Source of the DNA: Minisyncoccota bacterium
GTDB lineage: Bacteria > Patescibacteriota > Minisyncoccia > Phycocordibacterales > PALSA-1337
Assembly (NCBI GenBank): GCA_041671485.1
Contig: JBAZBL010000007.1
Location: 1 to 63,588, forward strand
Length of the DNA stretch: 63,588 bases
Direction of reading: 5' to 3'
A program made the position numbers and the translations under genes. The notes beneath the pieces are model-generated. The model worked only from the letters and a program-made list of their open reading frames with translations, had not been told where the DNA came from and ran no database searches. Positions 6,089 to 45,253 of this stretch are shown here, one piece after another (position 1 is the stretch's first letter; every line of letters starts with the position of its first letter).

Positions 6089-7768
6089 TCACATTCTCTC
6101 CACTTCTGCAGGAGGTATGACTACTTTCCATATCTTTCCATGTATAGTGCGCCATACTTCTTTGAATTCTCTATTCTTGAGTAAGATGAGGATAATGATA
6201 CCAATAACAATTCCAAATAGACCAGCACATAAGCCTTGCATGAATATTCCCCAAACTTTATTTAGTGGAAATATTTGATCAAATACTCGCAAAGAAAGAA
6301 AAGCCGCATAACCCATAATTATTGATGATGCAAAACTATGATAAAAGGTTGCTAGCACTGGCCTACTGAAATCTCTATATTTTCTAGTAAATACATACCA
6401 ATGTAATACAAGATTTATTATTGTACCTATAGAATATGCAAGTCCCAACATCAAAACACTAGTTCCTATTTGACCACCAACTTTGAGCAAATCTTCGAAG
6501 AAGAAACTAAATGCTGGCCAAGAATAAAACAATTTGGTGAGTACATAACCAAGTATAATGATAATGACAGCTGAAATTATATTTATTAGAAGTGGTTTTT
6601 GTGTCTCACCTTCCGCATAAAATGCCCGAATGAAAAGTATAACTAGACTTTGTCCTATGGTAGAGATAATAAATAATGCTAGCATTGCAGCAGTGAGCCG
6701 TGTATCAGCCCAATCAAATTGTCCTGAACCGAGAATAGTACGCACTATCTGTGCTCTAAGTACTATAAAGAGTATCATGATAGGCATTGACCAGAAGATG
6801 ATATGTTGAGCAGAAATGATCATTTTTTCCAAAAATTCTTTTCCGTTCTTTTCGAAATATAGACGAGAAAGGGTTGGAAATACAGCCGATGAATAACTAA
6901 CTCCTATTATGGTGAGTGGCACTGCTTGCAGATTGAATGCAAAATTAAAAACAGATATAGATCCTGGAACCATGAGAGAAGCGATGGCAACGAGAACAAA
7001 TGAAGCAATCTGATTTGCTGCAAGAGTTATCGTACGTGGTAATGTGCTTAGAACAACACTCTTTATCTTTATCCACTGTACAATCATGGTAAACCTAGGG
7101 ACCAACTTTTCATATGATAGAAAAGGTATTTGTATAGCCATATGCATGAAAGCTCCTATTACTACACCGATGGCCAAACCATAAATACCTACTAAGGGAT
7201 ATATAAATAGGATGCCAATGATAATGCCGAGATTATAAACAACAGGACTGATAGCATAGACCAAGAAACGATGTCTCATCTGTGTAAGACTAGAATACAA
7301 ATTCGAAAGACCCAAAAATAGAGGTGACAATAGCATTATCCTTATCGAAAGGATGAGTTGTGGTAAATATGGATCATTGGCAAAACCTGGAATTATTTTT
7401 GGCGTGATCCATGGAGTAATAAAATATACTATCACACTTACTATAATTATGGCTGTAAAGAAAACAGTAAATATTGTATCCGAAAATGATTTCCCTTCTT
7501 TGTCACTTTCACCAAACTTATTTATGAAATATGGCAGTAATATAGATGCCGAAACCAAAGAACCAATAGAGACAAATATAAGATCTGGCACACGGAATGC
7601 AGCATAATATATATCGAGAGTATGACTAGCACCAAATGAATACGCAAAGAGCTTGTCTCGAACCAAAGCAAGTATTTGTGACAATAGAGCAAAGAATGCA
7701 AGGAGATACGCGGCCTCATGAAGACCGCGTATCTCTCGAGCCATAATACTAAATAATCTCCTAACCAT
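6089..7768 (-). CDS. murJ: Lipid II flippase MurJ/MviN
   Basis: 559-aa polytopic protein with a MurJ-like N-terminus (ILALVRDKLFAYSFGASHTLDIYYAAFRVPD). Confidence 0.85.
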   Translation of the reverse strand: MVRRLFSIMAREIRGLHEAAYLLAFFALLSQILALVRDKLFAYSFGASHTLDIYYAAFRVPDLIFVSIGSLVSASILLPYFINKFGESDKEGKSFSDTIFTVFFTAIIIVSVIVYFITPWITPKIIPGFANDPYLPQLILSIRIMLLSPLFLGLSNLYSSLTQMRHRFLVYAISPVVYNLGIIIGILFIYPLVGIYGLAIGVVIGAFMHMAIQIPFLSYEKLVPRFTMIVQWIKIKSVVLSTLPRTITLAANQIASFVLVAIASLMVPGSISVFNFAFNLQAVPLTIIGVSYSSAVFPTLSRLYFEKNGKEFLEKMIISAQHIIFWSMPIMILFIVLRAQIVRTILGSGQFDWADTRLTAAMLALFIISTIGQSLVILFIRAFYAEGETQKPLLINIISAVIIIILGYVLTKLFYSWPAFSFFFEDLLKVGGQIGTSVLMLGLAYSIGTIINLVLHWYVFTRKYRDFSRPVLATFYHSFASSIIMGYAAFLSLRVFDQIFPLNKVWGIFMQGLCAGLFGIVIGIIILILLKNREFKEVWRTIHGKIWKVVIPPAEVERM

Positions 7769-10423: not shown

Positions 10424-10429
10424 CTGTGG

Positions 10430-10858
10430 ACTACTGCACAATAAGCCGAATTCTGTGCGAAGCACCCCGAGTTAAATCGAGGGGTTTCGGTAACAATTAT
10501 CTATCTAGCCCCAAGATTGTTCTCGGGGTCAAGCGACTCAGACCAAAAGCTATATTACTAGCTATTGGAATACGGTCTTGCACTGAAGTAAGGATTTTGC
10601 CGTTGCACTTCCTTGTTACCAAGGAATTCACCCTAAATATACTTGCGCATATCGAGGGTACCTCTGCCTTTCGGCTTTGGCGTCACTGTTCGCACCTCTA
10701 ATCAAAGACCAAATTGATTTGACGGGTATTACCCGCTACTATTCTGCCTTATGAAAGCGATCGCTATCCAATCTTCACAAGGCCAGTGTTCGGACTTTCC
10801 TCTCCTCGACTCGGTGCCAAATAGGCACCTCGCTCGGAGCAATTGTCTTGTGCAGCTA
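10430..10858 (-). ncRNA. rnpB: RNase P RNA (bacterial type A-like)
   Basis: The minus strand carries the universal P4 halves GAGGAAAGTCCGAAC and ACAGAATTCGGCTTAT. P1 pairs CTGCACAA with TTGTGCAG. The region is GC-rich, and the ORFs called here are spurious. Confidence 0.9.
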
Positions 10859-10863
10859 TCAGC

Positions 10864-10892: not shown

Positions 10893-10915
10893 GATACTGT
10901 CCTTTTAGATATTTT

Positions 10916-11063
10916 AGCTTGGAGAATATGCTCCCTTACCTCCACGCAAAGTCACCATTCCAAATTGCAACCGCATTTGCTTACAAGGATTCAGCAAATG
11001 CGGGCAATTTGTTCATGGTTCAGATCGCATTGCGTGTCGGTTCGAGAGCATATTCTCCAAGCT
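10916..11063. repeat. 18-bp perfect inverted repeat enclosing a 112-nt structured core (element C)
   Basis: agcttggagaatatgctc ... gagcatattctccaagct. Inner hairpin accgcatttgct/agcaaatgcggg. The right arm ends 3 nt from the nrdJ stop codon. Confidence 0.6.
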
Positions 11064-11066
11064 AAA

Positions 11067-13394
11067 CTACACAATCTCACAAACTCCAGAGACACAAGCC
11101 AATTCTTTCTTGAGATCTGTTTCATTTTGCTTTTCATAGGTAATTATCTTGGAATAATCTATATGTTCTAATCTCTTTGAAAGTTCCCTAAAAGTCTTTT
11201 CATCTATCGCTTCATATGGTGCAAGTTTATAGACATGATCTTCACGAGGCAAGAATGATAGACCACCAACAATATTCCAATTTTTATAAACCCAATTTGC
11301 AACTTCTATCCATTCATCATTCCCTATTGATATAGTTACAGATGGATTGTGTTCGGTGAAATTGATCTTGACCATTTTCCAATACTCGAGCTGTTCAATA
11401 GCACTAAGGTCATTTTTGAAAGTTGTTGTTCCCTTTGGTGCAGACACTGGAAATTCCAAAACAAATGTCGTTGCATTTTCTGCAGTTTGCCCAACTTCTG
11501 GGAAAAACGGTACACCCTGATCTTTTAACATCTTGAATAATGCATCTGTCGAAGATATTCGTACTCTACGAACATAATATTTTGCATGACGTGGATGCAT
11601 ACCAGATGAACAGTCAAATGTTTGAGATCCATTACCAGACGGTTTGACACACGTTACAGCAGTCGAAGCAGATATACCAAATCGTTTTGCATATTCTTGA
11701 TTGACTCTTATAGCTTCATCACGGAGTCTCTTCATGACTTCTGGCTTCCTTACGGCTGGACAATCCCATTGACCAGTGATAGATACTCCCAACAATCTCT
11801 CCTTTTCACAGTTTTCTCTCCATTCTTTGGAAAGATATTGAAAATTTGTCAGCATTGACTGATATGTACCAAGAATCGCCGCAATGCGAATCTTTTTCAT
11901 AAGAGTTCTCTCTGTATCTTCTGACCTTGCAACGACTTCGGAAAGATTACAAAATTGCTTTGATTGAAGTATTATCTCACCACATGGATTTACACCTATA
12001 AGTCCAATGATATGTTGTCCAGACGAATCGAAATATCCTTTGTATTCTTTTAGAACTTTTATACGACGTTCAGGCAAAGTAAGTGCTAGTGAACCGCGGT
12101 TGAATATACCTCTTTCTCCTGACTTGCTCTCGACTAGGGCCATCCATTCTTTTAGAAATTCTTCATTTGTTGGTTTATTGATATATACTGCAGAATTATT
12201 GGCCAACATCCTATGAGGATATGTCATATAGAATGCACCTTTCTTGGCATCACGTATTTCTGAATCATCGAGGTCAGACAAAGAGATAAGGGCGCTTCTC
12301 CTTACTCCACCAGAAACTATACATTCGCCCATCATACAAATGATGTCGTGTATATCTATATTTCTTAGTCTTCTGCCTTGCCTATCGAACATAATCTGAC
12401 GAGTGAAAGCCAATAAGCGTGTGAGTGGTTCTGGGCCAGATGCTTTACCACCACCTATTTTGAGGCGAGCTCCCAATGGTCTGATCTGGGAAAAGTCAAA
12501 ATCAATATCCTTACCCGATGCCCAAGCATTGGCACCAACAACAAATGCTTCACACCAACCTTCTTTGGAATCAGCGACAATATGAGTTTTGATTTTATCA
12601 CCAGTCTGAATCATGATTTGTGGAAATTTCTGTACATTTGCACTTTCTGCAGAAAAGCCTACACCTGTACCATTCATAGATATATACATGATTTCAGAAA
12701 GATCCTGAAATGATTCTGGTGCTATATAAGAACAATTGTATGCACATACATTTGTTCTTCTGGCTGCTGGACCAGCGAATTGCAAGAGGCGCATAGATGG
12801 AATTGCTGATTGTGTCAAGATATTTTCTCTTATTTCCTTATACTCTTCTTCTTTGAGTTTGCTTCCCAGATTTTCTTTCATGAAACCGATATACCTATCT
12901 ACTGTTTCTATCCAAGTTTCTCGACGATTTTCCTGATCTATCCAGCGTGAATAAGTCCTATAATAAACAAACTGTCCAAGAGCATTACGAAAATATTTCT
13001 TTGAATCACTAGCAAGCTTGCGTACATGCTCTGGTACTTCATAGCCTTTTGCACGTATCTTTGCTCGCTCTTCTCGATAGAGAACATAGTGCTTGGCGGC
13101 TTTGACATAGTCGGAGCGCATCAATTCTTGCTCAACAATATCCTGAACTCCTTCAACTGTAGGCAAGAAGTTCTTGAATTTGCGTTTTATGCGTATGAGT
13201 TCTGCATGAACCTGTAGAGCAACTGTCTTTGCTTCTTCCATTGAACCTTCTTGGACAGTATTCATACCCTTCCAAATAGCATTTGTGATTTTATCAATAA
13301 GAAAAGGCACTATTCGACCATCTCTCTTTATTATTGTGGGGATGGAAGGAGCCTTTACCGCTTGCCCCGAAGCGGTTTTTTTCTTTTTTGGCAT
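11067..13394 (-). CDS. nrdJ: Class II (adenosylcobalamin-dependent) ribonucleotide reductase
   Basis: 775 aa with active-site motifs NPCGEI and CNLSEV and a C-terminal redox Cys pair. Confidence 0.9.
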   Translation of the reverse strand: MPKKKKTASGQAVKAPSIPTIIKRDGRIVPFLIDKITNAIWKGMNTVQEGSMEEAKTVALQVHAELIRIKRKFKNFLPTVEGVQDIVEQELMRSDYVKAAKHYVLYREERAKIRAKGYEVPEHVRKLASDSKKYFRNALGQFVYYRTYSRWIDQENRRETWIETVDRYIGFMKENLGSKLKEEEYKEIRENILTQSAIPSMRLLQFAGPAARRTNVCAYNCSYIAPESFQDLSEIMYISMNGTGVGFSAESANVQKFPQIMIQTGDKIKTHIVADSKEGWCEAFVVGANAWASGKDIDFDFSQIRPLGARLKIGGGKASGPEPLTRLLAFTRQIMFDRQGRRLRNIDIHDIICMMGECIVSGGVRRSALISLSDLDDSEIRDAKKGAFYMTYPHRMLANNSAVYINKPTNEEFLKEWMALVESKSGERGIFNRGSLALTLPERRIKVLKEYKGYFDSSGQHIIGLIGVNPCGEIILQSKQFCNLSEVVARSEDTERTLMKKIRIAAILGTYQSMLTNFQYLSKEWRENCEKERLLGVSITGQWDCPAVRKPEVMKRLRDEAIRVNQEYAKRFGISASTAVTCVKPSGNGSQTFDCSSGMHPRHAKYYVRRVRISSTDALFKMLKDQGVPFFPEVGQTAENATTFVLEFPVSAPKGTTTFKNDLSAIEQLEYWKMVKINFTEHNPSVTISIGNDEWIEVANWVYKNWNIVGGLSFLPREDHVYKLAPYEAIDEKTFRELSKRLEHIDYSKIITYEKQNETDLKKELACVSGVCEIV

Positions 13395-13548
13395 ATTGCG
13401 TTGCAGGCGGTGCGCCGCTAGTGCTTATTAATTGTTAATGATAATTTTCTGTAGTAAGTAAATTTATTCTACTCCGAGTATGCAAGGAGAGGAAGTGTGG
13501 ATAACGCTTTATAGCATGAGATTTCAAAAAAGTAAAAACTCTTTTGTT

Positions 13549-13738
13549 TTGTAAATATGAATATGCAATTTTGGAGTTCTGCGTAACTCGTTCGGTAAAT
13601 TTCTAGATAAAAGGCTCGGGGATTTGTAAACAAATCCCCACAACAACGCCTTTTACCAAGAAATTTATACTCACCCTGCCTGCCGGCAGGCAGGTCAAAC
13701 AGTACTCGATCTCCAAAATTGCATATTCATATTTACAA
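13549..13738 (-). repeat. Nested-hairpin structured element, copy A (core oriented on the minus strand)
   Basis: 28-bp perfect closing stem (13549-13576 / 13711-13738). The core shares 4 collinear conserved blocks with copy B at 17877-18069. Confidence 0.75.
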
Positions 13739-13741
13739 AGA

Positions 13742-14299
13742 TCAAAAATTAAGAACTGTTCCAGTTGCAATACCCAAGCGATCGCTTGCACCAGCATTTA
13801 CTTCAAGGACAAACTGTATATCAGATGGTGGATAGAAAAACTGAGGGAAAGTATCTGGTGATACATCCTTTGCAATACCGACAACTTCACGGTTTGAACG
13901 AATCCATATAATATCAATTGGAAAATTCATATCTTTCATCCAGAAACCATACTTCCCTACACTTGGAAATATGAATAACATTCCAGCATTATTTGGTAAA
14001 GATTCCCTATTGCTCAAACCCAATTCCCTTTGCGTAGGGTTATTGGCTATTTGCACTCTCAAAGTATCACTTTTTAGTTTTATCGTCGTTGTTGCATAAG
14101 ATTTATCGAAGAATTGTAATTCTGATTTATTTTGATTTATATACCGATCAGTAGAACTAGCAAATTGATTAGTCGAACTAGCTAGAAATTCTCCGAGAGA
14201 TGGAAAAGCTTTTGTCGAAATCATATAGTTCGCCAGAATAACTATTCCGACAATCCCAACTACTGGAATAATAAATTTTGAAAAAGTAGATTGTGGCAT
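13742..14299 (-). CDS. DUF192-family protein
   Basis: 185 aa: N-terminal TM, then GLSNRESLPNNAGMLFIF...FWMKDMNFPIDIIWI...VLEVNAG, typical of DUF192/COG1430. Confidence 0.75.
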   Translation of the reverse strand: MPQSTFSKFIIPVVGIVGIVILANYMISTKAFPSLGEFLASSTNQFASSTDRYINQNKSELQFFDKSYATTTIKLKSDTLRVQIANNPTQRELGLSNRESLPNNAGMLFIFPSVGKYGFWMKDMNFPIDIIWIRSNREVVGIAKDVSPDTFPQFFYPPSDIQFVLEVNAGASDRLGIATGTVLNF

Positions 14300-14334
14300 T
14301 CTAAAATAATCTTATATTTTGTTTGGATAAAAAG

Positions 14335-14366
14335 GGGCGGCTCCAAAACCCAAACGGAGCCGCCTT
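14335..14366 (-). terminator. Rho-independent terminator of the GC-rich small gene
   Basis: Minus strand ggcggctcc-N11-ggagccgcc followed by ccttttta. Confidence 0.7.
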
Positions 14367-14402
14367 GATACTTCGTGAAAAGCCCTAAACCCATGTTTGT
14401 AT

Positions 14403-14651
14403 TCACGAAGTAAAACTAAATTCTGGATGTTCCAAAGCAAATCTCTTCCTGAATGCTCCAAATCCACCGTGAGTCAGAGAATGGATCCGTTTCTCATCTG
14501 ACGATGGTGGATGATGCATTGCTTCTCCCGCGCCCCACGAATTCAGAGGGCTTTCGCAATCCTCGGCATAGCCTTGAAAAAACTTGACAAGTAGCAGTTG
14601 TTCAACTACAACTTCGCTTTCACTTTTGCATGGTTTTTCTCCAGTATTCAT
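14403..14651 (-). CDS. Hypothetical 82-aa protein in a GC-rich mini-cassette
   Basis: ORF trimmed to the ATG at 14651, which is preceded by GGAGGTG-cac. No family recognised. Confidence 0.45.
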   Translation of the reverse strand: MNTGEKPCKSESEVVVEQLLLVKFFQGYAEDCESPLNSWGAGEAMHHPPSSDEKRIHSLTHGGFGAFRKRFALEHPEFSFTS

Positions 14652-14779
14652 GTGCACCTCCAGTCTTGTTAATTGATCTGTATATAATTGTACAGCTATC
14701 CTATAAGAGTGCAATAGGACGATTTATTTATCAATAATGGTAATCATATTGAAATTCTGCTAATCTTGAATAACCATTT

Positions 14780-14866
14780 GGAGGGTTCGCATAGTGGTCT
14801 AGTGCGCGTCCCTGGAAAGGACGTATGTCCGAAAGGGCATCGAGAGTTCGAATCTCTCACCCTCCG
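14780..14866 (+). tRNA. tRNA-Ser (GGA)
   Basis: Acceptor GGAGGGT/ACCCTCC, anticodon arm CGTCC-CTGGAAA-GGACG, long variable arm, T arm GAGAG-TTCGAAT-CTCTC. Confidence 0.9.
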
Positions 14867-14871
14867 CCTTC

Positions 14872-14922
14872 GCTACGCCGAAGCACGATTAGTGCGGAGG
14901 CGAACATTTGTGACGGCGTAGC
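14872..14922. repeat. GC-rich hairpin abutting tRNA-Ser; possible degenerate member of the GC-rich palindromic family
   Basis: gctacgccg ... cggcgtagc stem. Internal gaggcgaa...acatttgtgacggcg resembles the right half of the 38137 and 40792 copies. Confidence 0.3.
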
Positions 14923-15082
14923 TACAGCGTGATACAATCCGCAATATGTATTATGTATACAGCTTAATTAGACTTTTATGTAGCTATTCAAGATAAGTAT
15001 TTAGCTTTTAAGCTTGAATCATATTTCAAATCTGGTTCTGGAAGAACATTTATCAAAAGACATTTTATACAAAAAATGACGA

Positions 15083-15793
15083 TCAAGAAACAATCATCTC
15101 TAACTTATCTTTCTTCAACCTTTCAATAGAATATCGAAACATTATTCTCGGCATCTTTTGGGCATACTTTCTCAAGAAAGATATCAGTGTCTTCTCATCC
15201 CTCTTTCCTACTTCTCTTAACATCCAGCCAACTGCTTTATGGATGAGATCGTGTTGATCTTTCATCAAAATTTCGGATAGTGCAACCGTATCTTGGAAAT
15301 CATTTTTGCTTATAAAATATAGCGTAGAAATGATAGCAATACGTCGCCTCCAAATATCTTTTGATTTTGCAAGTTTATACAATATTTTCCTACTTTTACC
15401 TTCGTCAAAAAGATATTTACCCAAGATTCTCGGAGCAGTGAGATCAACCAAGTCCCAGTTATTGACATAGTCCAGATTGGACAAATAGAGATCCACAATA
15501 GACTTAGATACTTTTGCCAAAGATTCTACTTTGTAAACCAATATGAGGAAACCCGTCAAACGTACTTCATGATATTTATCTCGCAATAATTCACCTATTT
15601 GTTTGAGATCCAATTCCACATATTTGCGAGCAATACTTCTCTGCACAGGAACTACAATACCTAGGAATTTATCCCCTTCTCCATATTCTCCTTTACCTGT
15701 TTTGAAAAAACGCGAAAGCAAGACTACTTTTTCTGGATCAGCAACTTGTTTCAATCTATTTTTGACCGATTTGGGTAGAAGACGTATTTTCAT
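15083..15793 (-). CDS. DNA alkylation repair protein (AlkD/AlkC-like HEAT repeat)
   Basis: 236 aa with family signatures VNNWDLVD, WRRRIAI, KAVGWMLREVGK. Confidence 0.7.
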   Translation of the reverse strand: MKIRLLPKSVKNRLKQVADPEKVVLLSRFFKTGKGEYGEGDKFLGIVVPVQRSIARKYVELDLKQIGELLRDKYHEVRLTGFLILVYKVESLAKVSKSIVDLYLSNLDYVNNWDLVDLTAPRILGKYLFDEGKSRKILYKLAKSKDIWRRRIAIISTLYFISKNDFQDTVALSEILMKDQHDLIHKAVGWMLREVGKRDEKTLISFLRKYAQKMPRIMFRYSIERLKKDKLEMIVS

Positions 15794-15830
15794 ATCATGA
15801 ATAAAGATAGCATATCACCACCCATAAATA

Positions 15831-15839
15831 TGGTAAAAT
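15831..15839 (+). promoter_or_regulatory. Extended -10 (TGgTAAAAT) 7 nt upstream of ATG 15847; leaderless candidate
   Basis: taTGgTAAAATacatctcATG. Confidence 0.35.
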
Positions 15840-15846
15840 ACATCTC

Positions 15847-16068
15847 ATGCAAACTAATAATGAAAAAATAAGAAATCTTGCATCTGGAGATGGTGATTAT
15901 AAACTTGTAGTTGATTTCTTGATAGAAGAAAAAAGATTTGAGAAAATATTATTTCCTGATCTAGAAAGAGCATCTTCTCTATATAAAAAACTATCAAATA
16001 AACATTTTGCTAATTTAGATGATGTTTGTACAAGAAATAAAATAGGTAAAAAGAAAAGGGTGCCTTAG
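15847..16068 (+). CDS. Hypothetical 73-aa protein
   Basis: ORF with a -10 box directly upstream; no family recognised. Confidence 0.4.
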   Translation: MQTNNEKIRNLASGDGDYKLVVDFLIEEKRFEKILFPDLERASSLYKKLSNKHFANLDDVCTRNKIGKKKRVP

Positions 16069-16179
16069 GTAATTAACCGTTTGGACCCCTCTTCGTCGTA
16101 ATACTTATATACTAGCCAATTATTAATCAAAAGTCAAGTCACGATTTGGAATTGGATTTTGGTAATATTACAAAACAAA

Positions 16180-16185
16180 TATAAT
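16180..16185 (+). promoter_or_regulatory. -10 box (TATAAT) 5 nt upstream of ATG 16191; leaderless candidate
   Basis: aaaTATAATgtataATG. Confidence 0.35.
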
Positions 16186-16190
16186 GTATA

Positions 16191-16961
16191 ATGAAAACAA
16201 ATAAAACATCATGGGGAAAAGTAGCAGATTGGTATGATGATCTGCTTGAGCGATCGCCAGATTCATTCCAAGAGAAAGTGATACTGCCAAACTTACTTAG
16301 ACTATTGGATATCAAAAAGGATGTTTCTGTACTTGATGTCGCCTGTGGTCAAGGGTATTTTACTAGAGCATTCCACGAAAAAGGTGCGCAGGTAACTGGT
16401 TTTGATATTTCACAAGAATTGATTGACCTTGCAAAGAAGTCTGGTGGAAATAAGATCAAATATTTTGTAGCATCAGCAGATGATTTTACAAAGACAGTTG
16501 ATCAGGACAAATTTGACGCTATTACAATAATTCTTGCCTTACAAAATATAGAAAATATAAATGGTGTTTTCGAAGAATGTGCAAAGGTGCTCAAACCCGG
16601 TGGACAGATAGCAATTGTGCTCAATCATTCAACCTTTCGTATACCCAAGAGATCTAGTTGGATTTGGGATGAGAAAGAGAATAAACAATATCGCAGAATA
16701 GATGGATATATGAGAGAAAGTCATACAGATATAGACATGACACCAGGAGAAACCGATCCTTCACGCAAAAAATATACAGTATCATTCCACCGCCCATTGC
16801 AAACATATTTCAAACTTCTCGACAAAAACGGTTTTGCTATCAACAGATTAGAAGAATGGATCTCTCATAAAGCCAGCCAGCCGGGGCCTAGGGCAAGTGA
16901 AGAAGATAGGATGAGGAAAGAGATACCTATGTTTATTGCTATGGTTGCAAAGAAGTTTTAG
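16191..16961 (+). CDS. Class I SAM-dependent methyltransferase
   Basis: Motif I VLDVACGQGYFT and post-I/II motifs. Confidence 0.8.
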   Translation: MKTNKTSWGKVADWYDDLLERSPDSFQEKVILPNLLRLLDIKKDVSVLDVACGQGYFTRAFHEKGAQVTGFDISQELIDLAKKSGGNKIKYFVASADDFTKTVDQDKFDAITIILALQNIENINGVFEECAKVLKPGGQIAIVLNHSTFRIPKRSSWIWDEKENKQYRRIDGYMRESHTDIDMTPGETDPSRKKYTVSFHRPLQTYFKLLDKNGFAINRLEEWISHKASQPGPRASEEDRMRKEIPMFIAMVAKKF

Positions 16962-16973
16962 TATCAAATCTGT

Positions 16974-17864
16974 TCACCACCTTCCTCCTGCTCCCCCACC
17001 ACCCGACATACCGCCACCAAATCCGCCGAAGCCTCCACCTCCGAAACCGCCACGTCCTCCTCCAGAACCAAGGAACCACAATCCACCTCCATGACCACCA
17101 GAGCCAGGAGGATTCTTGGATACTATATAGTCAAATATTAGGCCTAGAATGGTAAGTATGATGATAGATATAAGGCCTATTGAGATGAAACCCCATATAA
17201 GTCCAATTATCGTCCCTATAACAGCGCCTATTGCACCACCCAACCACCAAGACTTCGTCTTTCCCAATATTCTAGCAAAAAGATTTAGAAGGATTACCCC
17301 AAAGAAAAATAGACCAAAAAGATTGTCCTCTGAATTGGATCCTCCTGAATTTGTATTTGATTTGTGATCTTCTATATATGCCAATGCATCAGGAGATTTG
17401 TATATAATTCCAGAAAGCATATCTACTGCTTTTACAATCCCACCTGAATAGTCACCTTCCCTGAAAGCAGGTGTCAATATATCTCTTACAATTATACCGG
17501 ACTGCAAGTCTGTAATATCTCCTTCCAGACCATAACCAACTTCTATCTGCATTTCCCTTTCATCCAATGCAATTAGGAGAAGCAAACCATTGTCTTTACC
17601 TTTCTGTCCGAGACCCCAATCTTCAAACAATTTCACAGCATAGTTTTGTCGAGTATCACCACCTAAAGAAGGGATTGTTACGACAGATATTTGTGCACTA
17701 GTAGTATTGTTCAATGATACTAATTTTGATTCAATTGCTTGCTCAATCTCTCTATCAATAATATTTGCAAAATCATTGACAAAACCAGTCGGCTTTCCGG
17801 GACTAACATAAGCTACCGCAATGAGCGGCAACATTATGAATATTGTGATCAGTAATTTACGCAT
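16974..17864 (-). CDS. TPM-domain protein (YgcG-like) with TM segments and a Gly-rich tail
   Basis: Signal peptide, TPM domain (VNDFANII...QISVVTIPSLGG...MQIEVGYGLEG), TM segments, and a GGGFGG tail. Confidence 0.8.
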   Translation of the reverse strand: MRKLLITIFIMLPLIAVAYVSPGKPTGFVNDFANIIDREIEQAIESKLVSLNNTTSAQISVVTIPSLGGDTRQNYAVKLFEDWGLGQKGKDNGLLLLIALDEREMQIEVGYGLEGDITDLQSGIIVRDILTPAFREGDYSGGIVKAVDMLSGIIYKSPDALAYIEDHKSNTNSGGSNSEDNLFGLFFFGVILLNLFARILGKTKSWWLGGAIGAVIGTIIGLIWGFISIGLISIIILTILGLIFDYIVSKNPPGSGGHGGGLWFLGSGGGRGGFGGGGFGGFGGGMSGGGGAGGRW

Positions 17865-17876
17865 AGTTTTATTTTA

Positions 17877-18069
17877 CCCAAGAAGTGCTCTGATTTGAAT
17901 TTCGAGTACTGTTTGAGCGACTACAAATTGCTTGATAAAATGCGTATGTTGTGGGAATTGCTACGATACCGAGACATGAAATGTCGAGGTATCGAGCAAT
18001 TCAATAGCATTTTATCTAGCAATTTGAGGAGTGAGTTACGCAGAAATTCAAATCAGAGCACTTCTTGGG
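17877..18069 (+). repeat. Nested-hairpin structured element, copy B (core oriented on the plus strand)
   Basis: 27-bp perfect closing stem (17877-17903 / 18043-18069). The core shares conserved blocks with copy A, and all helices covary. Confidence 0.75.
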
Positions 18070-18081
18070 CAAAAACAACCT

Positions 18082-18636
18082 TTAAAAATTAACCTTAGGT
18101 GCATTCTCCGCTCCACTGTCTGCTTCAAAATAATTGATATCATCGAAGCCAAACATAGAAGCTATGACTGATTTTGGAAATCTTTTTATCGTTGTCTCAT
18201 ATACGCGAACTCCATCATTGTACCTCTGTCTTGCAACACCTATGCGATTCTCCGTACCTTCTAGTTGTGTCATAAGGTTTTGTACTGTTTCTATTGATTT
18301 CAATGTAGGATAATTTTCCATAACAACCAATAGCCTACCAAATGCAGTCTCTACCTGACCAGCAGCCAAAGCCCTATCACTCGCTGTTTGTGCTCCAGAA
18401 TAACGTGTCCTAGCATCGGCAATAGCAGTGAAGATAGACTCTTCTTGTTTCATTGCTCCTTTTACAGATTCTACAAGGTTTGGGATGAGGTCAAAACGAC
18501 GCTGATAATCTGTTTCAACTTGCTGCCACTGTGCCGTCACACCCTCTTTCATGGAGACTAAACCATTGAATGATGTCCAGACATAGAGAGCAATAATCAA
18601 TACAATAACTCCGATTATTATTAATGTTTTTTTCAT
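18082..18636 (-). CDS. LemA-family protein
   Basis: 184 aa: N-terminal TM and a LemA domain (FNGLV...QRRFDLIPNLV...ENRIGVARQRYN). Confidence 0.9.
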   Translation of the reverse strand: MKKTLIIIGVIVLIIALYVWTSFNGLVSMKEGVTAQWQQVETDYQRRFDLIPNLVESVKGAMKQEESIFTAIADARTRYSGAQTASDRALAAGQVETAFGRLLVVMENYPTLKSIETVQNLMTQLEGTENRIGVARQRYNDGVRVYETTIKRFPKSVIASMFGFDDINYFEADSGAENAPKVNF

Positions 18637-40066: not shown

Positions 40067-40765
40067 TCACCACCCCTTCACCTCGAGTGCCTTCTCTGCT
40101 GCTTTTTGTTCTGCCTCTTGTTTGGAAGGACCAGAACCAGTAGCGACTTGAACATCGCCTAGAAATACTCCCAAAGTGAATTGTTTATCATGGTCAGGAC
40201 CAATTTCCTTCAGAGTTCTATAAGATGGAGTAATACCCACTTTGTCTTGTGCAACTTCCTGGAAACGACTCTTTGCATCTATCCAAGTTTTGTTTTTGAC
40301 TATTTCTTCTATATCTATCGTGTTTAGCAAATGATTTGAGATAAAGTTGGCCGCAGCATTGTATCCACGATCTAGATATATAGCGCCTATTATTGCCTCT
40401 ACTGCATTGGCGAGAATAACGGAGCGGGCACGACCACCATCTTTGGCTTCACCTTTTGAAAGCAAAATGTAGTCATTCAAGTTTATAGATTGAGCAACTT
40501 TTGTGAGACTAACGGTATTCACGAGAGCAGAGCGGAATGCTGTTAGTTCACCTTCAGCTTTCTTTGTGTATTTCCTGAATAGGAAACTTGTCACTACCAA
40601 TTCCAATACTGCATCGCCTAGGAATTCTAGTCTTTCATTGTGTTCCATTCCAGAAACACGATTTTCATTCAAATAAGAGCGATGTGTACAAGCATTTTGC
40701 AAAAGCGAAATATCGTCAAATTCGACTCCTATTTTATCTGCAAATTCTTTGAAATCTGTTTTCAT
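40067..40765 (-). CDS. rnc: Ribonuclease III
   Basis: Signature ERLEFLGDAVL and a C-terminal dsRBD. Confidence 0.93.
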   Translation of the reverse strand: MKTDFKEFADKIGVEFDDISLLQNACTHRSYLNENRVSGMEHNERLEFLGDAVLELVVTSFLFRKYTKKAEGELTAFRSALVNTVSLTKVAQSINLNDYILLSKGEAKDGGRARSVILANAVEAIIGAIYLDRGYNAAANFISNHLLNTIDIEEIVKNKTWIDAKSRFQEVAQDKVGITPSYRTLKEIGPDHDKQFTLGVFLGDVQVATGSGPSKQEAEQKAAEKALEVKGW

Positions 40766-43661: not shown

Positions 43662-44408
43662 TTATTTCTTAATTACTTTTTCAAAACTCGAATTGTAATC
43701 GACCAACTTTTCCCAATTGATTTTTCCATCATCACAAAAATTTTGTGAAAACTCTAGTGTAAGTTTATTTATTATTTGAGCATACTTCTCCATAAATTCC
43801 TCATTTCTCTCCTTTGCCTTGTAACCAATCGGCTCAACTATGTCAATATATAATTTTTTATTTCCAGAAATAAGTTCCCAGAATCTTTGTCCGCACAATT
43901 TCAAATAACCATTTTTATCAGGTTTATTATCTCTACCGAAACAACACCCATTAATAGCAACAACTTTTTTGCTAGTTTTTTTATGCAATAATTTTTTTGC
44001 ATTCTCAAAATTGATTTTAAGCTGACGGATTTGGCTTGAATTACCCCAGTTCCAGCCTGCTTTGATTTCAATAATATATACTATCCCATCTTTTTCAAAT
44101 TCCAGATCTATCCCTGTCAACTCTGATTTTTTAGCACCATATACTTTATCACAAACAAAAATCGCTAAACCCTCAATAAAGTCGCCAAAAAGTGTTTCCT
44201 CCTGAGATTGTAAAAAAGCATCTAAAAAGCCTTTGATCAAATCCTGGGCGGTTAATACATTCTTAGCCCTAAAAAGATATGGGTTTTTCTGTTTAAGAAT
44301 CTTGTACAAATCGACCTTATTTTGTACATAATCTAATCTCCTTTGGTGGAAGATTGAAATATGTTCCTCTACATATCCATGGACTTCTTGCAGGTTAAAT
44401 TTTTTCAT
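43662..44408 (-). CDS. Type II restriction endonuclease candidate (PD-(D/E)XK)
   Basis: Motif GIDLEF...YIIEIKAG (D...E-x-K). Start overlaps the methylase stop by 4 nt. Confidence 0.6.
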   Translation of the reverse strand: MKKFNLQEVHGYVEEHISIFHQRRLDYVQNKVDLYKILKQKNPYLFRAKNVLTAQDLIKGFLDAFLQSQEETLFGDFIEGLAIFVCDKVYGAKKSELTGIDLEFEKDGIVYIIEIKAGWNWGNSSQIRQLKINFENAKKLLHKKTSKKVVAINGCCFGRDNKPDKNGYLKLCGQRFWELISGNKKLYIDIVEPIGYKAKERNEEFMEKYAQIINKLTLEFSQNFCDDGKINWEKLVDYNSSFEKVIKK

Positions 44409-45253
44409 ACAGTTAATTTGTTATGAACGAATAAGGACGACTCTTTTTGTGCAATCTTCTTTTTAGCCATTTCAACGTATTCTGACATTATATCAATACC
44501 AATAGAATTACGTCCCATCTTTTGTGCAACTTCTGATGTGGTGCCAGAACCCAAAAATGGATCCAGAACAAAATCGTTTTCTCGAGTAAATAATTTGATA
44601 AACCATTCTGGTAACTCTTCCGGAAAAGCAGCACTGTGATTTTTGTTATTACAAACAGTTGCGAATTGCAAGACATTGCTAGGAAAAACCATGCTTCGTT
44701 TCAACCAATTGGAAATATTTTTACCAAACCCACTACCATTCTTAGAATTATCTCGTATTTTATCTGTTTCACTAAGATTTTTTAAACGTCCGTAAGCCCA
44801 ATCACCAACTGGTATCATTACTGATTCTTGGTACATATTAAAATCGCGTGCTTTATTAAATTGCAACACTCGTTCCCACGAATCACGAAAACGATTTGGC
44901 CATTTACCAGGATAACAATTTTTCTTATGCCAGATAAATTCTTCAGTCCATAACCAACCCTGCTTACGCAATGCTAAAATAAGTTCAAGTACATAGGTAC
45001 TACGCTCACCATTTTCTGCTTTTTCCTTGATATTTAAAATAAACGTACCAGTCGGCTTTAATACACGTAATAATTGTTCGCTAATAGGTAAAAACCACTC
45101 GACATATTTTTCAGTGCTAATACCGCCATAGGTATTTTTTCTTCTATCTGCATAAGGTGGTGATGTAACAATCAAGTCAATAAAATTATCATCAACTGTT
45201 TTAAGAATTTTCCGCGAATCACCAAGTAATATTTTTGTTGTTACATTAAGCAT
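44405..45253 (-). CDS. DNA methyltransferase, beta-class N4/N6 (SPPY)
   Basis: Catalytic motif TSPPYADRR is N-terminal and the SAM motif DPFLGSGTT is C-terminal. Confidence 0.85.
   Translation of the reverse strand: MLNVTTKILLGDSRKILKTVDDNFIDLIVTSPPYADRRKNTYGGISTEKYVEWFLPISEQLLRVLKPTGTFILNIKEKAENGERSTYVLELILALRKQGWLWTEEFIWHKKNCYPGKWPNRFRDSWERVLQFNKARDFNMYQESVMIPVGDWAYGRLKNLSETDKIRDNSKNGSGFGKNISNWLKRSMVFPSNVLQFATVCNNKNHSAAFPEELPEWFIKLFTRENDFVLDPFLGSGTTSEVAQKMGRNSIGIDIMSEYVEMAKKKIAQKESSLFVHNKLTV

Follow-up and report, generated by a model that had tools for sequence, protein, structure and literature searches.

Two loci in the window (the whole stretch of 63,588 nt analysed here) are best read, with a probability of about 0.6, as diverged copies of a new family of non-autonomous palindromic insertion elements in Paceibacteria-type Patescibacteria, mobilised in trans. 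The family behaves like MITE, Correia or ERIC elements, and mobile palindromic DNA, not a fixed RNA gene, is the best reading of it. The finding is real and new, and it is more ordinary than the earlier note had proposed: a mobile repeat, not a dedicated RNA gene. The odd feature of this otherwise familiar type, small palindromic insertion elements, is a pair of flawless, hypervariable arms. Ordinary MITEs and attC sites show the reverse of a conserved folded core between such arms, a combination that may indicate an unrecognised way of moving or maintaining palindromic DNA. The mobile elements of ultra-small Patescibacteria are little described, and in the literature we found no description of small palindromic repeat elements in these bacteria.

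Architecture of the two copies

The two loci, copies A and B, lie on opposite strands (Table 1), in the places and orientations first reported for them. They are homologous, and their structure is conserved through compensatory changes. Both fold into one common rod, made up of a closing stem (P1), an internal loop formed by the junctions J1 and J2, a second helix (P2) that carries a conserved U.U mismatch, a loop GUUGUGG and an apical hairpin. Against dinucleotide shuffles, the minimum-energy folds have z-scores of -14.8 (A) and -14.2 (B). The four conserved, collinear blocks described earlier are recovered when A is aligned with B, the alignment running over A(T/C)AAATT(T/G)CTTG(G/A)TAAAA(G/T)GCGT(T/AT)GTTGTGGG and TTTTATCTAG(A/C)AATTT. 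Both GAGTACTGTTTGA and GAGTTACGCAGAA have exactly two occurrences in the window, at A and B only, and window occurrences of the J1 word TCGAGTACTGTTTGA are likewise limited to these copies. The element measures 185-220 bp, with a GC content of 0.36-0.43, and is non-coding, since no reading frame is open in every copy; a hidden small protein was rejected as a candidate because there is no conserved frame.

The closing stems are flawless, as had been claimed, with 29 bp in A (13548-13576 paired with 13711-13739) and 27 bp in B, the latter including the conserved TC/GA. Neither pair of arms recurs elsewhere in the window when up to three mismatches are allowed, and the corresponding figure for shuffles is zero. 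That the stem sequences are unrelated between copies is largely correct; the exception lies in the inner ~10 nt, where a T-run is kept at a fixed distance from TCGAG in four of four copies, counting the two further copies described below. The apical hairpin was said to have been replaced. It is only the tip that differs, in length; the base, GG(G/A)ATT(G/T)(C/G), is homologous in A, B and the further full copy, C. The 20-nt perfect GC palindrome reported in A (CCTGCCTGCCGGCAGGCAGG, 13675-13694) is present as described, occurs once in the window and is an insertion relative to the other copies.

Placement relative to the neighbouring genes had been given as 3-12 nt past a stop codon. This fits B, whose perfect stem lies 12 nt from the LemA stop, but A begins only 2 nt past the DUF192 stop. 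B consists of a perfect hairpin (17877-18069) with a 12-nt, imperfectly complementary extension on each side, and with this imperfect outer part it reaches across the whole LemA-TPM spacer. Short extensions of the same sort, T-rich on one side and A-rich on the other, are seen outside the perfect arms in A, in B and in the copy from L008. The A-rich piece of A, ACAAAAGAG, came with the insertion, but its pairing partner is TTTTTG at the end of the gene, which was there before. Pairing of the extensions could be chance in AT-rich DNA.

Table 1. Coordinates of the two copies, their parts and the neighbouring genes (window positions unless a contig is named)
Feature	Position	Strand	Remarks
Copy A, whole element	13548..13739	minus	perfect arms and core
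A, P1, 5' arm	13711..13739	minus	29 nt, perfect
A, J1	13695..13709	minus	conserved junction, TCGAGTACTGTTTGA
A, nested GC palindrome	13675..13694	minus	20 nt, CCTGCCTGCCGGCAGGCAGG; A only, insertion relative to B, C and D
A, P2, 5' strand	13648..13667	minus	TAAATTTCTTGGTAAAAGGC
A, loop and apical hairpin P3	13618..13647	minus	conserved loop GTTGTTGTG
A, P2, 3' strand	13596..13615	minus	GCCTTTTATCTAGAAATTTA
A, J2	13577..13595	minus	conserved junction, CCGAACGAGTTACGCAGAA
A, P1, 3' arm	13548..13576	minus	
Copy B, whole inserted segment	17865..18081	plus	fills entire LemA-TPM spacer
B, P1, 5' arm	17877..17903	plus	27 nt including conserved TC
B, J1	17902..17916	plus	TCGAGTACTGTTTGA
B, P2, 5' strand	17924..17943	plus	
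B, P2, 3' strand	18007..18026	plus	
B, J2	18027..18045	plus	3' end is GAGTTACGCAGAA
B, P1, 3' arm	18043..18069	plus	
Extensions beyond arms, A	13539-13547 and 13741-13746		
Extensions beyond arms, B	17865-17876 and 18070-18081		
Extensions beyond arms, L008 copy	L008:13792-13808 and 13992-14008		
DUF192 gene	13742..14299	minus	copy A begins 2 nt past its stop codon
Class II ribonucleotide reductase gene	11067..13394	minus	downstream of A
LemA gene	18082..18636	minus	immediately upstream of B in direction of transcription
TPM-domain gene	16974..17864	minus	immediately downstream of B; coupled to or overlapping LemA in relatives
RNase III gene	40067..40765	minus	

Further copies

Searches for homologs beyond the window yielded one full and one truncated copy. 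Copy C (L008:13809-13991, minus strand) was found by an exact-pattern scan of JGI metagenomes and follows a RadC gene. Its closing stem is a perfect 30 bp, its sequence again different, and its J1 bears two substitutions, one of which converts a U.G pair to C.G. Copy D, in L023, is partial, the contig ending inside it; it lies directly after the DUF192 gene of a 59%-identical relative, and its CTTGRTAAAA block is altered. The known members are thus four, three full (A, B, C) and one partial (D), two of them within 63.6 kb. Protein relatives of the window belong to Patescibacteria (Paceibacteria or Taylorbacteria-like). The family is real and sparsely sampled.

The scans of metagenomes and of GTDB species genomes used exact patterns only, and together they gave one further copy. 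In the GTDB species genomes, the pattern J1...GTTGTGGG found three matches, where about eight were estimated by chance. Two of these are clearly unrelated. The third, in domain I of a Shapirobacteria 23S rRNA, was put down to chance: copy C is not matched, and the bases are paired differently in the rRNA. This 23S rRNA (L002:6980-7033) contains GAGTACTGTTTGA and ATGTTGTGGGAAT, words of J1 and of the copy B loop, and at about position 6230 L002 also has CCAGCCTGCCGGTTGGCAGG, a word resembling the GC palindrome of A.

When ~0.3 Mb of related loci were searched with covariance models of A, B and C that either included or omitted the stem, zero further copies came to light, and a core-only model found no arm-less relics of the element. 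IMG/VR, queried with three arm sequences, two strict patterns and a loose one, returned either nothing or five chance matches that fail the covariance model. Searches of phage and plasmid collections with blastn gave no match, so that the arms are not recognisable copies of foreign DNA. The translation of B, used as a query for more copies in a protein database, produced no candidates.

The hairpins do break short-read assemblies here, which might raise the suspicion of a fold-back chimera or some other assembly artefact, or else of chance resemblance. The probability of either is close to nil. Logan contigs of two further runs or samples carry copy B in a form identical to that of the NCBI genome assembly, and C comes from an unrelated JGI metagenome; these independent sources effectively refute an artefact. 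In addition, the copies score 140-166 bits with the covariance models, and their arms are never reproduced by shuffles.

The practical consequence is that assemblies made from short reads break up right at the hairpin element. Logan short-read contigs stop within hairpins at L004:3641, L005:1980, L007:1 and L023:1174, and in two samples they break 86 nt past the LemA stop.

Compensatory changes and strand asymmetry

The compensatory substitutions first proposed from A and B are confirmed with three copies. In the alignment of A, B and C, 96.9% of the cells are paired, and 21 of the 54 pairs are changed on both sides. These values are reached by none of 500 shuffles, nor are they approached in any slid register. 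The inner helices account for seven of the double changes. The ~130-145-nt core keeps one rod-like fold through such changes at 72-79% identity between copies; for the inner 15 nt of each arm, the part that was aligned, identity is 20-43%.

A caution is needed here, in that covariation within a palindromic repeat does not by itself demonstrate a functional RNA. Template switching during replication creates and repairs perfect stems and yields multi-base 'compensatory' changes (PMC8794818, PMC7202029). Because this DNA-level process gives the same pattern, covariation alone is no proof of an RNA gene.

The two strands of the element are not equivalent. G.U pairs occur at three positions (columns 27-168, 51-167 and 69-150) on the J1-to-J2 strand only, and the A.C mismatch that would be the other-strand equivalent of G.U is absent from the three-copy alignment; the wobble asymmetry thus depends on three positions. 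The J1-to-J2 strand also folds better than its opposite in all three full copies (-97.0/-89.1, -102.2/-98.3 and -85.8/-74.1 kcal/mol). One-strand wobble and better folding of the same strand together fit a single-stranded nucleic acid as what matters, and the element is probably recognised as a folded single strand. In this respect the earlier note's argument for a folded RNA or ssDNA is supported; the contrast that it drew with a MITE does not hold, in view of the empty orthologous sites in close relatives (see below).

The arms follow other rules. Taken together, the closing stems of A, B and C comprise ~86 bp with zero wobble and zero mismatch, whereas the rate in the inner helices, 5 wobble pairs in ~84 cells, would by rough arithmetic lead one to expect about five. 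The arms are therefore maintained differently from the inner helices. Wobble-free arms beside inner helices with five G.U pairs look like the outcome of DNA-level maintenance rather than of RNA-level selection.

The element matches no Rfam family, as had been surmised. A covariance-model search with Rfam 15, covering the whole window at gathering thresholds and positions 13300-18400 at E<=10, gave only tRNAs and weak microRNA-hairpin noise. The only response to the stem came from plant microRNA hairpin models, far below threshold at 34.9 bits against a gathering score of 119, and none of the Rfam ribozymes, 6S, Y RNA, HEARO or IS605-associated RNAs matches the element.

The lack of any Rfam match, ribozymes included and even at E<=10, counts against a structured non-coding RNA carried on mobile DNA, be it a small RNA, a protein-binding RNA or a self-cleaving ribozyme, whose active or binding core would consist of the junction loops, and whose long closing stem would serve for processing by RNase III. 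Such an RNA would suit the conservation of unpaired blocks while helices covary, as well as the restriction of G.U to the strand that folds better in all full copies. Three of the four copies are co-oriented with the upstream gene, so that co-transcription is expected, and the genome encodes an RNase III, which could cut the long stems if they are transcribed. B, however, is antisense to its operon, with no convincing promoter upstream on its own strand; the copies are dispensable, since there are close relatives without them; closing stems free of any wobble would be unusual if held by RNA-level selection only; and the CTTGRTAAAA block is altered in D. On balance we consider an RNA of this kind unlikely, while still giving it some weight.

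Empty sites

Copy A is absent from L020, a relative whose DUF192 is 89% identical and in which the spacer between the DUF192 and ribonucleotide reductase genes is 152 nt, as against 347 nt here. The flanks of L020 and the window align well, and where L020 has TCATGA the window has ~202 nt of its own, namely a single C, the 192-nt hairpin and ACAAAAGAG. The segment present around A but absent from the empty site is therefore the hairpin together with ~1 nt on its left and ACAAAAGAG (13539-13547) on its right. Copy B, for its part, is lacking in L009 (TPM 79% identical), which reads TTTCTAATGCG or, at greater length, ...GTTAGTTTCTAATGCGTAAATTACTG. In L009 the LemA stop overlaps the TPM ATG; in the window 217 nt, all of it palindrome, lie between the same two codons. 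More distant relatives are also without B, with spacers of 64 nt in L011 (62%) and 3 nt in L026.

Since the orthologous sites are empty in relatives, A and B have been inserted, and the arms are part of the inserted unit. Judged from these alignments, both are recent insertions, made after the split from the closest sampled relatives, and B has by the same comparison split a LemA-TPM pair that is coupled in the sampled relatives. The arm sequences of A and B are missing from the empty sites, and the idea of the arms as an inverted duplicate of the target site was rejected because the empty sites contain no arm sequence. Filled and empty sites of A and B, when compared, show no direct repeat longer than 1 nt that could represent a target-site duplication.

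The same distribution could in principle have arisen through two precise deletions in the relatives. This is unlikely, the overlapping LemA stop and TPM start of L009 arguing against it. It could also be that A and B were acquired by recombination after DNA uptake and not by transposition.

A and D both follow a DUF192 gene, in two lineages, and five intermediate relatives are without the element there, which suggests that A and D are independent insertions into the same roomy spacer. Overall, at least three organisms carry copies, at sites that are not orthologous, and the flanking genes may run with or against the element. Near each of the four, at a distance that varies between 0 and 15 nt, there is a T-run with TGA or TAA after it (TTTTTGA, TTTTTAA, TTTTTTGA and TTTATGA). 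Three of these are simply gene ends, and the T-run and stop is a candidate target motif at most. Tightly packed though they are, Patescibacteria genomes still accept ~200-bp hairpin insertions, even within a translationally coupled pair.

Genomic context

Pfam scans covered all window ORFs of at least 150 aa and the genes around both copies. They revealed housekeeping genes, an EcoO109I-type restriction-modification pair, a coupling-protein-like ATPase and several unknown proteins. Among the scanned window ORFs there is no transposase, reverse transcriptase, integrase, recombinase, Rep, relaxase, TnpA (Y1) or TnpB. The gene for the EcoO109I-type restriction endonuclease lies beside one for an N4/N6 DNA methyltransferase (43662-45253, minus strand). 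In a 62%-identical relative, genes for a large serine recombinase and for an HTH/S24-peptidase repressor-like protein are found directly downstream of TPM (L011:11057-13374 and the same region of L012, L013 and L016), which suggests an integrated element at this locus.

At the TPM end of B there is a promoter-like site, TTCAAA-17-TAAAAT (17871-17899, minus strand), built from the outer arm of B and the flank and ending 6 nt before the TPM ATG. No Shine-Dalgarno sequence accompanies this start codon. Going by a consensus match only, the insertion of B may supply a leaderless start for TPM. The apical hairpin of A together with CCUUUUAU scored as terminator-like, and those of B and C did not; readings of the element as a terminator or an internal promoter were rejected as inconsistent across copies.

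A, C and D share the direction of their upstream gene and B is antisense to its operon, so both orientations are represented among the copies. Together with perfect 25-30-bp inverted repeats around a ~135-nt segment, and with a hairpin at 10913-11067 that is inverted between two related genomes, this recalls an invertible regulatory switch (inverton), whose inverted repeats would be recombination sites between which the core flips, changing the expression of a neighbour. We hold such a switch to be highly improbable. The repeats vary here while the core is conserved, the opposite of invertons served by one invertase, and no invertase gene lies nearby among the scanned ORFs. Furthermore, B has the same orientation in three independent assemblies, and close relatives are without the elements.

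Comparison with known elements

The Correia elements of Neisseria (CREE) have conserved 26-bp terminal repeats and a TA duplication. They are strain-polymorphic, non-coding palindromic insertions of ~100-155 bp between genes, in which inverted repeats enclose a conserved core; once transcribed they form long hairpins, which RNase III binds or cuts, and promoters can arise from their ends (PMC2649163). The present element is likewise a palindromic non-coding intergenic insertion with inverted repeats around a conserved core. It differs in that its arms are almost unrelated between copies, there is no duplication and no sequence similarity to CREE, and its hosts are Patescibacteria. There are similar parallels with ERIC/IRU, RUP, BOX and SPRITE (reviewed in PMC2229807, PMC10969869 and PMC3049150), which are also small, non-autonomous, located near gene ends in either orientation and able to form hairpin- or terminator-like RNA folds. 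Those elements, however, are conserved over their full length and present in tens to hundreds of copies, whereas here conservation is confined to the core, the arms are perfect and hypervariable, and copies are few. Of the traits that define classical MITEs, which derive from insertion sequences with a DDE transposase, the element is small, non-coding and AT-rich and shows presence/absence polymorphism (A absent from L020; B absent from L009, L011 and L026), but it has neither conserved terminal inverted repeats nor a target-site duplication.

HUH/Y1 transposases (IS200/IS605) recognise hairpins. Single-strand transposition of the IS200/IS605 type is the best mechanistic analogy for conserved loops with covarying stems: no target duplication is made, the process is strand-specific and folded ssDNA is recognised by way of hairpins and the unpaired bases next to them, putatively so in the present case. 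The correspondence is incomplete. The ends of IS200/IS605 are two separate small subterminal hairpins, whereas one hairpin spans the element here. Insertion of IS200/IS605 is also fixed to the 3' side of one particular tetra- or pentanucleotide, of which no consistent example could be made out at the four copies, and the Pfam domains of its partners TnpA/TnpB are missing among the scanned window ORFs. The likeness in target duplication, folded-ssDNA recognition and strand specificity extends to PATEs, the small elements derived from IS200/IS605. For a retron, no RT domain was found among the scanned window ORFs.

Integron attC sites (60-140 nt) are, like the present element, imperfect palindromes right past a stop codon, with structure more conserved than sequence; attC is recognised as a folded single strand, and so, putatively, is the element. 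A folded-ssDNA site, either an attC-like recombination site or a single-strand origin or priming signal of an integrated replicon, would agree with a ~190-nt rod-like imperfect palindrome showing strand-specific wobble, and perfect Watson-Crick arms suit DNA better than RNA. In attC, however, the outer boxes are conserved and the centre is variable, while here the centre is conserved and the ends are variable; the element ends TTTGTAAAT.../CCCAAGAAG.../GTGAAAG... do not match the attC R''/R' boxes RYYYAAC ... GTTRRRY. The flanks are core housekeeping genes in conserved order, not cassettes, and no integrase, Rep or relaxase gene occurs among the scanned window ORFs. Single-strand promoters carry a -35/-10-like pair inside a stem, and a -35/extended -10-like pair is indeed present within the stem of B and C (B: TTGAGC-17-TGATAAAAT); in A, though, the GC palindrome destroys the promoter-like spacing, and in D the -10-like block is altered. 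Such a site is very unlikely to be the explanation.

Template-switch (quasipalindrome) mutation offers a DNA-level origin both for flawless arms and for apparent compensatory changes. It is a process, not an element, and leaves the presence of a conserved core at unrelated sites unexplained.

A possible mode of movement

If A and B are indeed mobile palindromic insertion elements, they would be mobilised in trans by an enzyme encoded elsewhere, which would recognise the single strand in its folded form by the invariant internal loops J1 and J2 together with the loop GUUGUGG. The folded strand would be ssDNA at the replication fork or, less likely, RNA. DNA-level intrastrand templating, for instance template switching or fold-back synthesis, would keep the arms perfect or regenerate them, and recombination between the arms might flip the core, giving rise to the opposite orientation of B. 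A co-transcribed copy (A, C, D) would give the upstream message a long dsRNA stem at its 3' end, which might act as an RNase III site or a 3' stabiliser; effects of this sort have been shown for Correia elements (PMC2649163). B would separate the normally coupled LemA-TPM pair and bring the promoter-like site just before the TPM start.

Several observations sit less easily with the insertion-element reading. Only three full copies and one partial copy are known, exact-pattern scans having given just one more, and neither a copy burst nor an autonomous partner was seen. No gene for a transposase, reverse transcriptase or recombinase is present among the scanned window ORFs. The classical hallmarks of MITEs, conserved terminal repeats and target duplication, are absent.

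The arms could be accounted for if the mobile element were of a new kind, defined by its structure, travelling as a folded single strand, being recognised through its conserved internal loops only and having its 25-30-bp stem rebuilt by self-templated synthesis (fold-back or template-switch) at each move. A stem rebuilt at each move would leave arms that are always flawless yet almost unrelated between copies. Alternatively, the stem might be a reprogrammable module of a mobile RNA. We nevertheless judge this distinctly unlikely.

Other hairpins

Positions 10913-11067, between the ribonucleotide reductase stop and the gene for RNase P RNA, are occupied by an unrelated nested hairpin of ~155 nt, again rod-like but built on a different core, with 23-bp arms that include one U.G pair on the minus strand. 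The 89%-identical L020 has it at the same site (L020:3190-3246), but inverted relative to the gene; arm-bounded segments therefore do flip, and orientation is a weak guide to function.

The adjacent RNase P RNA gene (10426-10859, minus strand) matches RNaseP_bact_a over the full model length with 69.9 bits. As this is below the gathering score of 100, standard Rfam annotation misses the gene.

In another Patescibacteria genome (GCA_028870795.1, JAGWOV010000005.1), the LepA frame contains a GC-rich palindrome of 181 nt whose 39-bp arms are perfect (L027:18504-18684); it looks like a hairpin inserted in frame into a coding gene.
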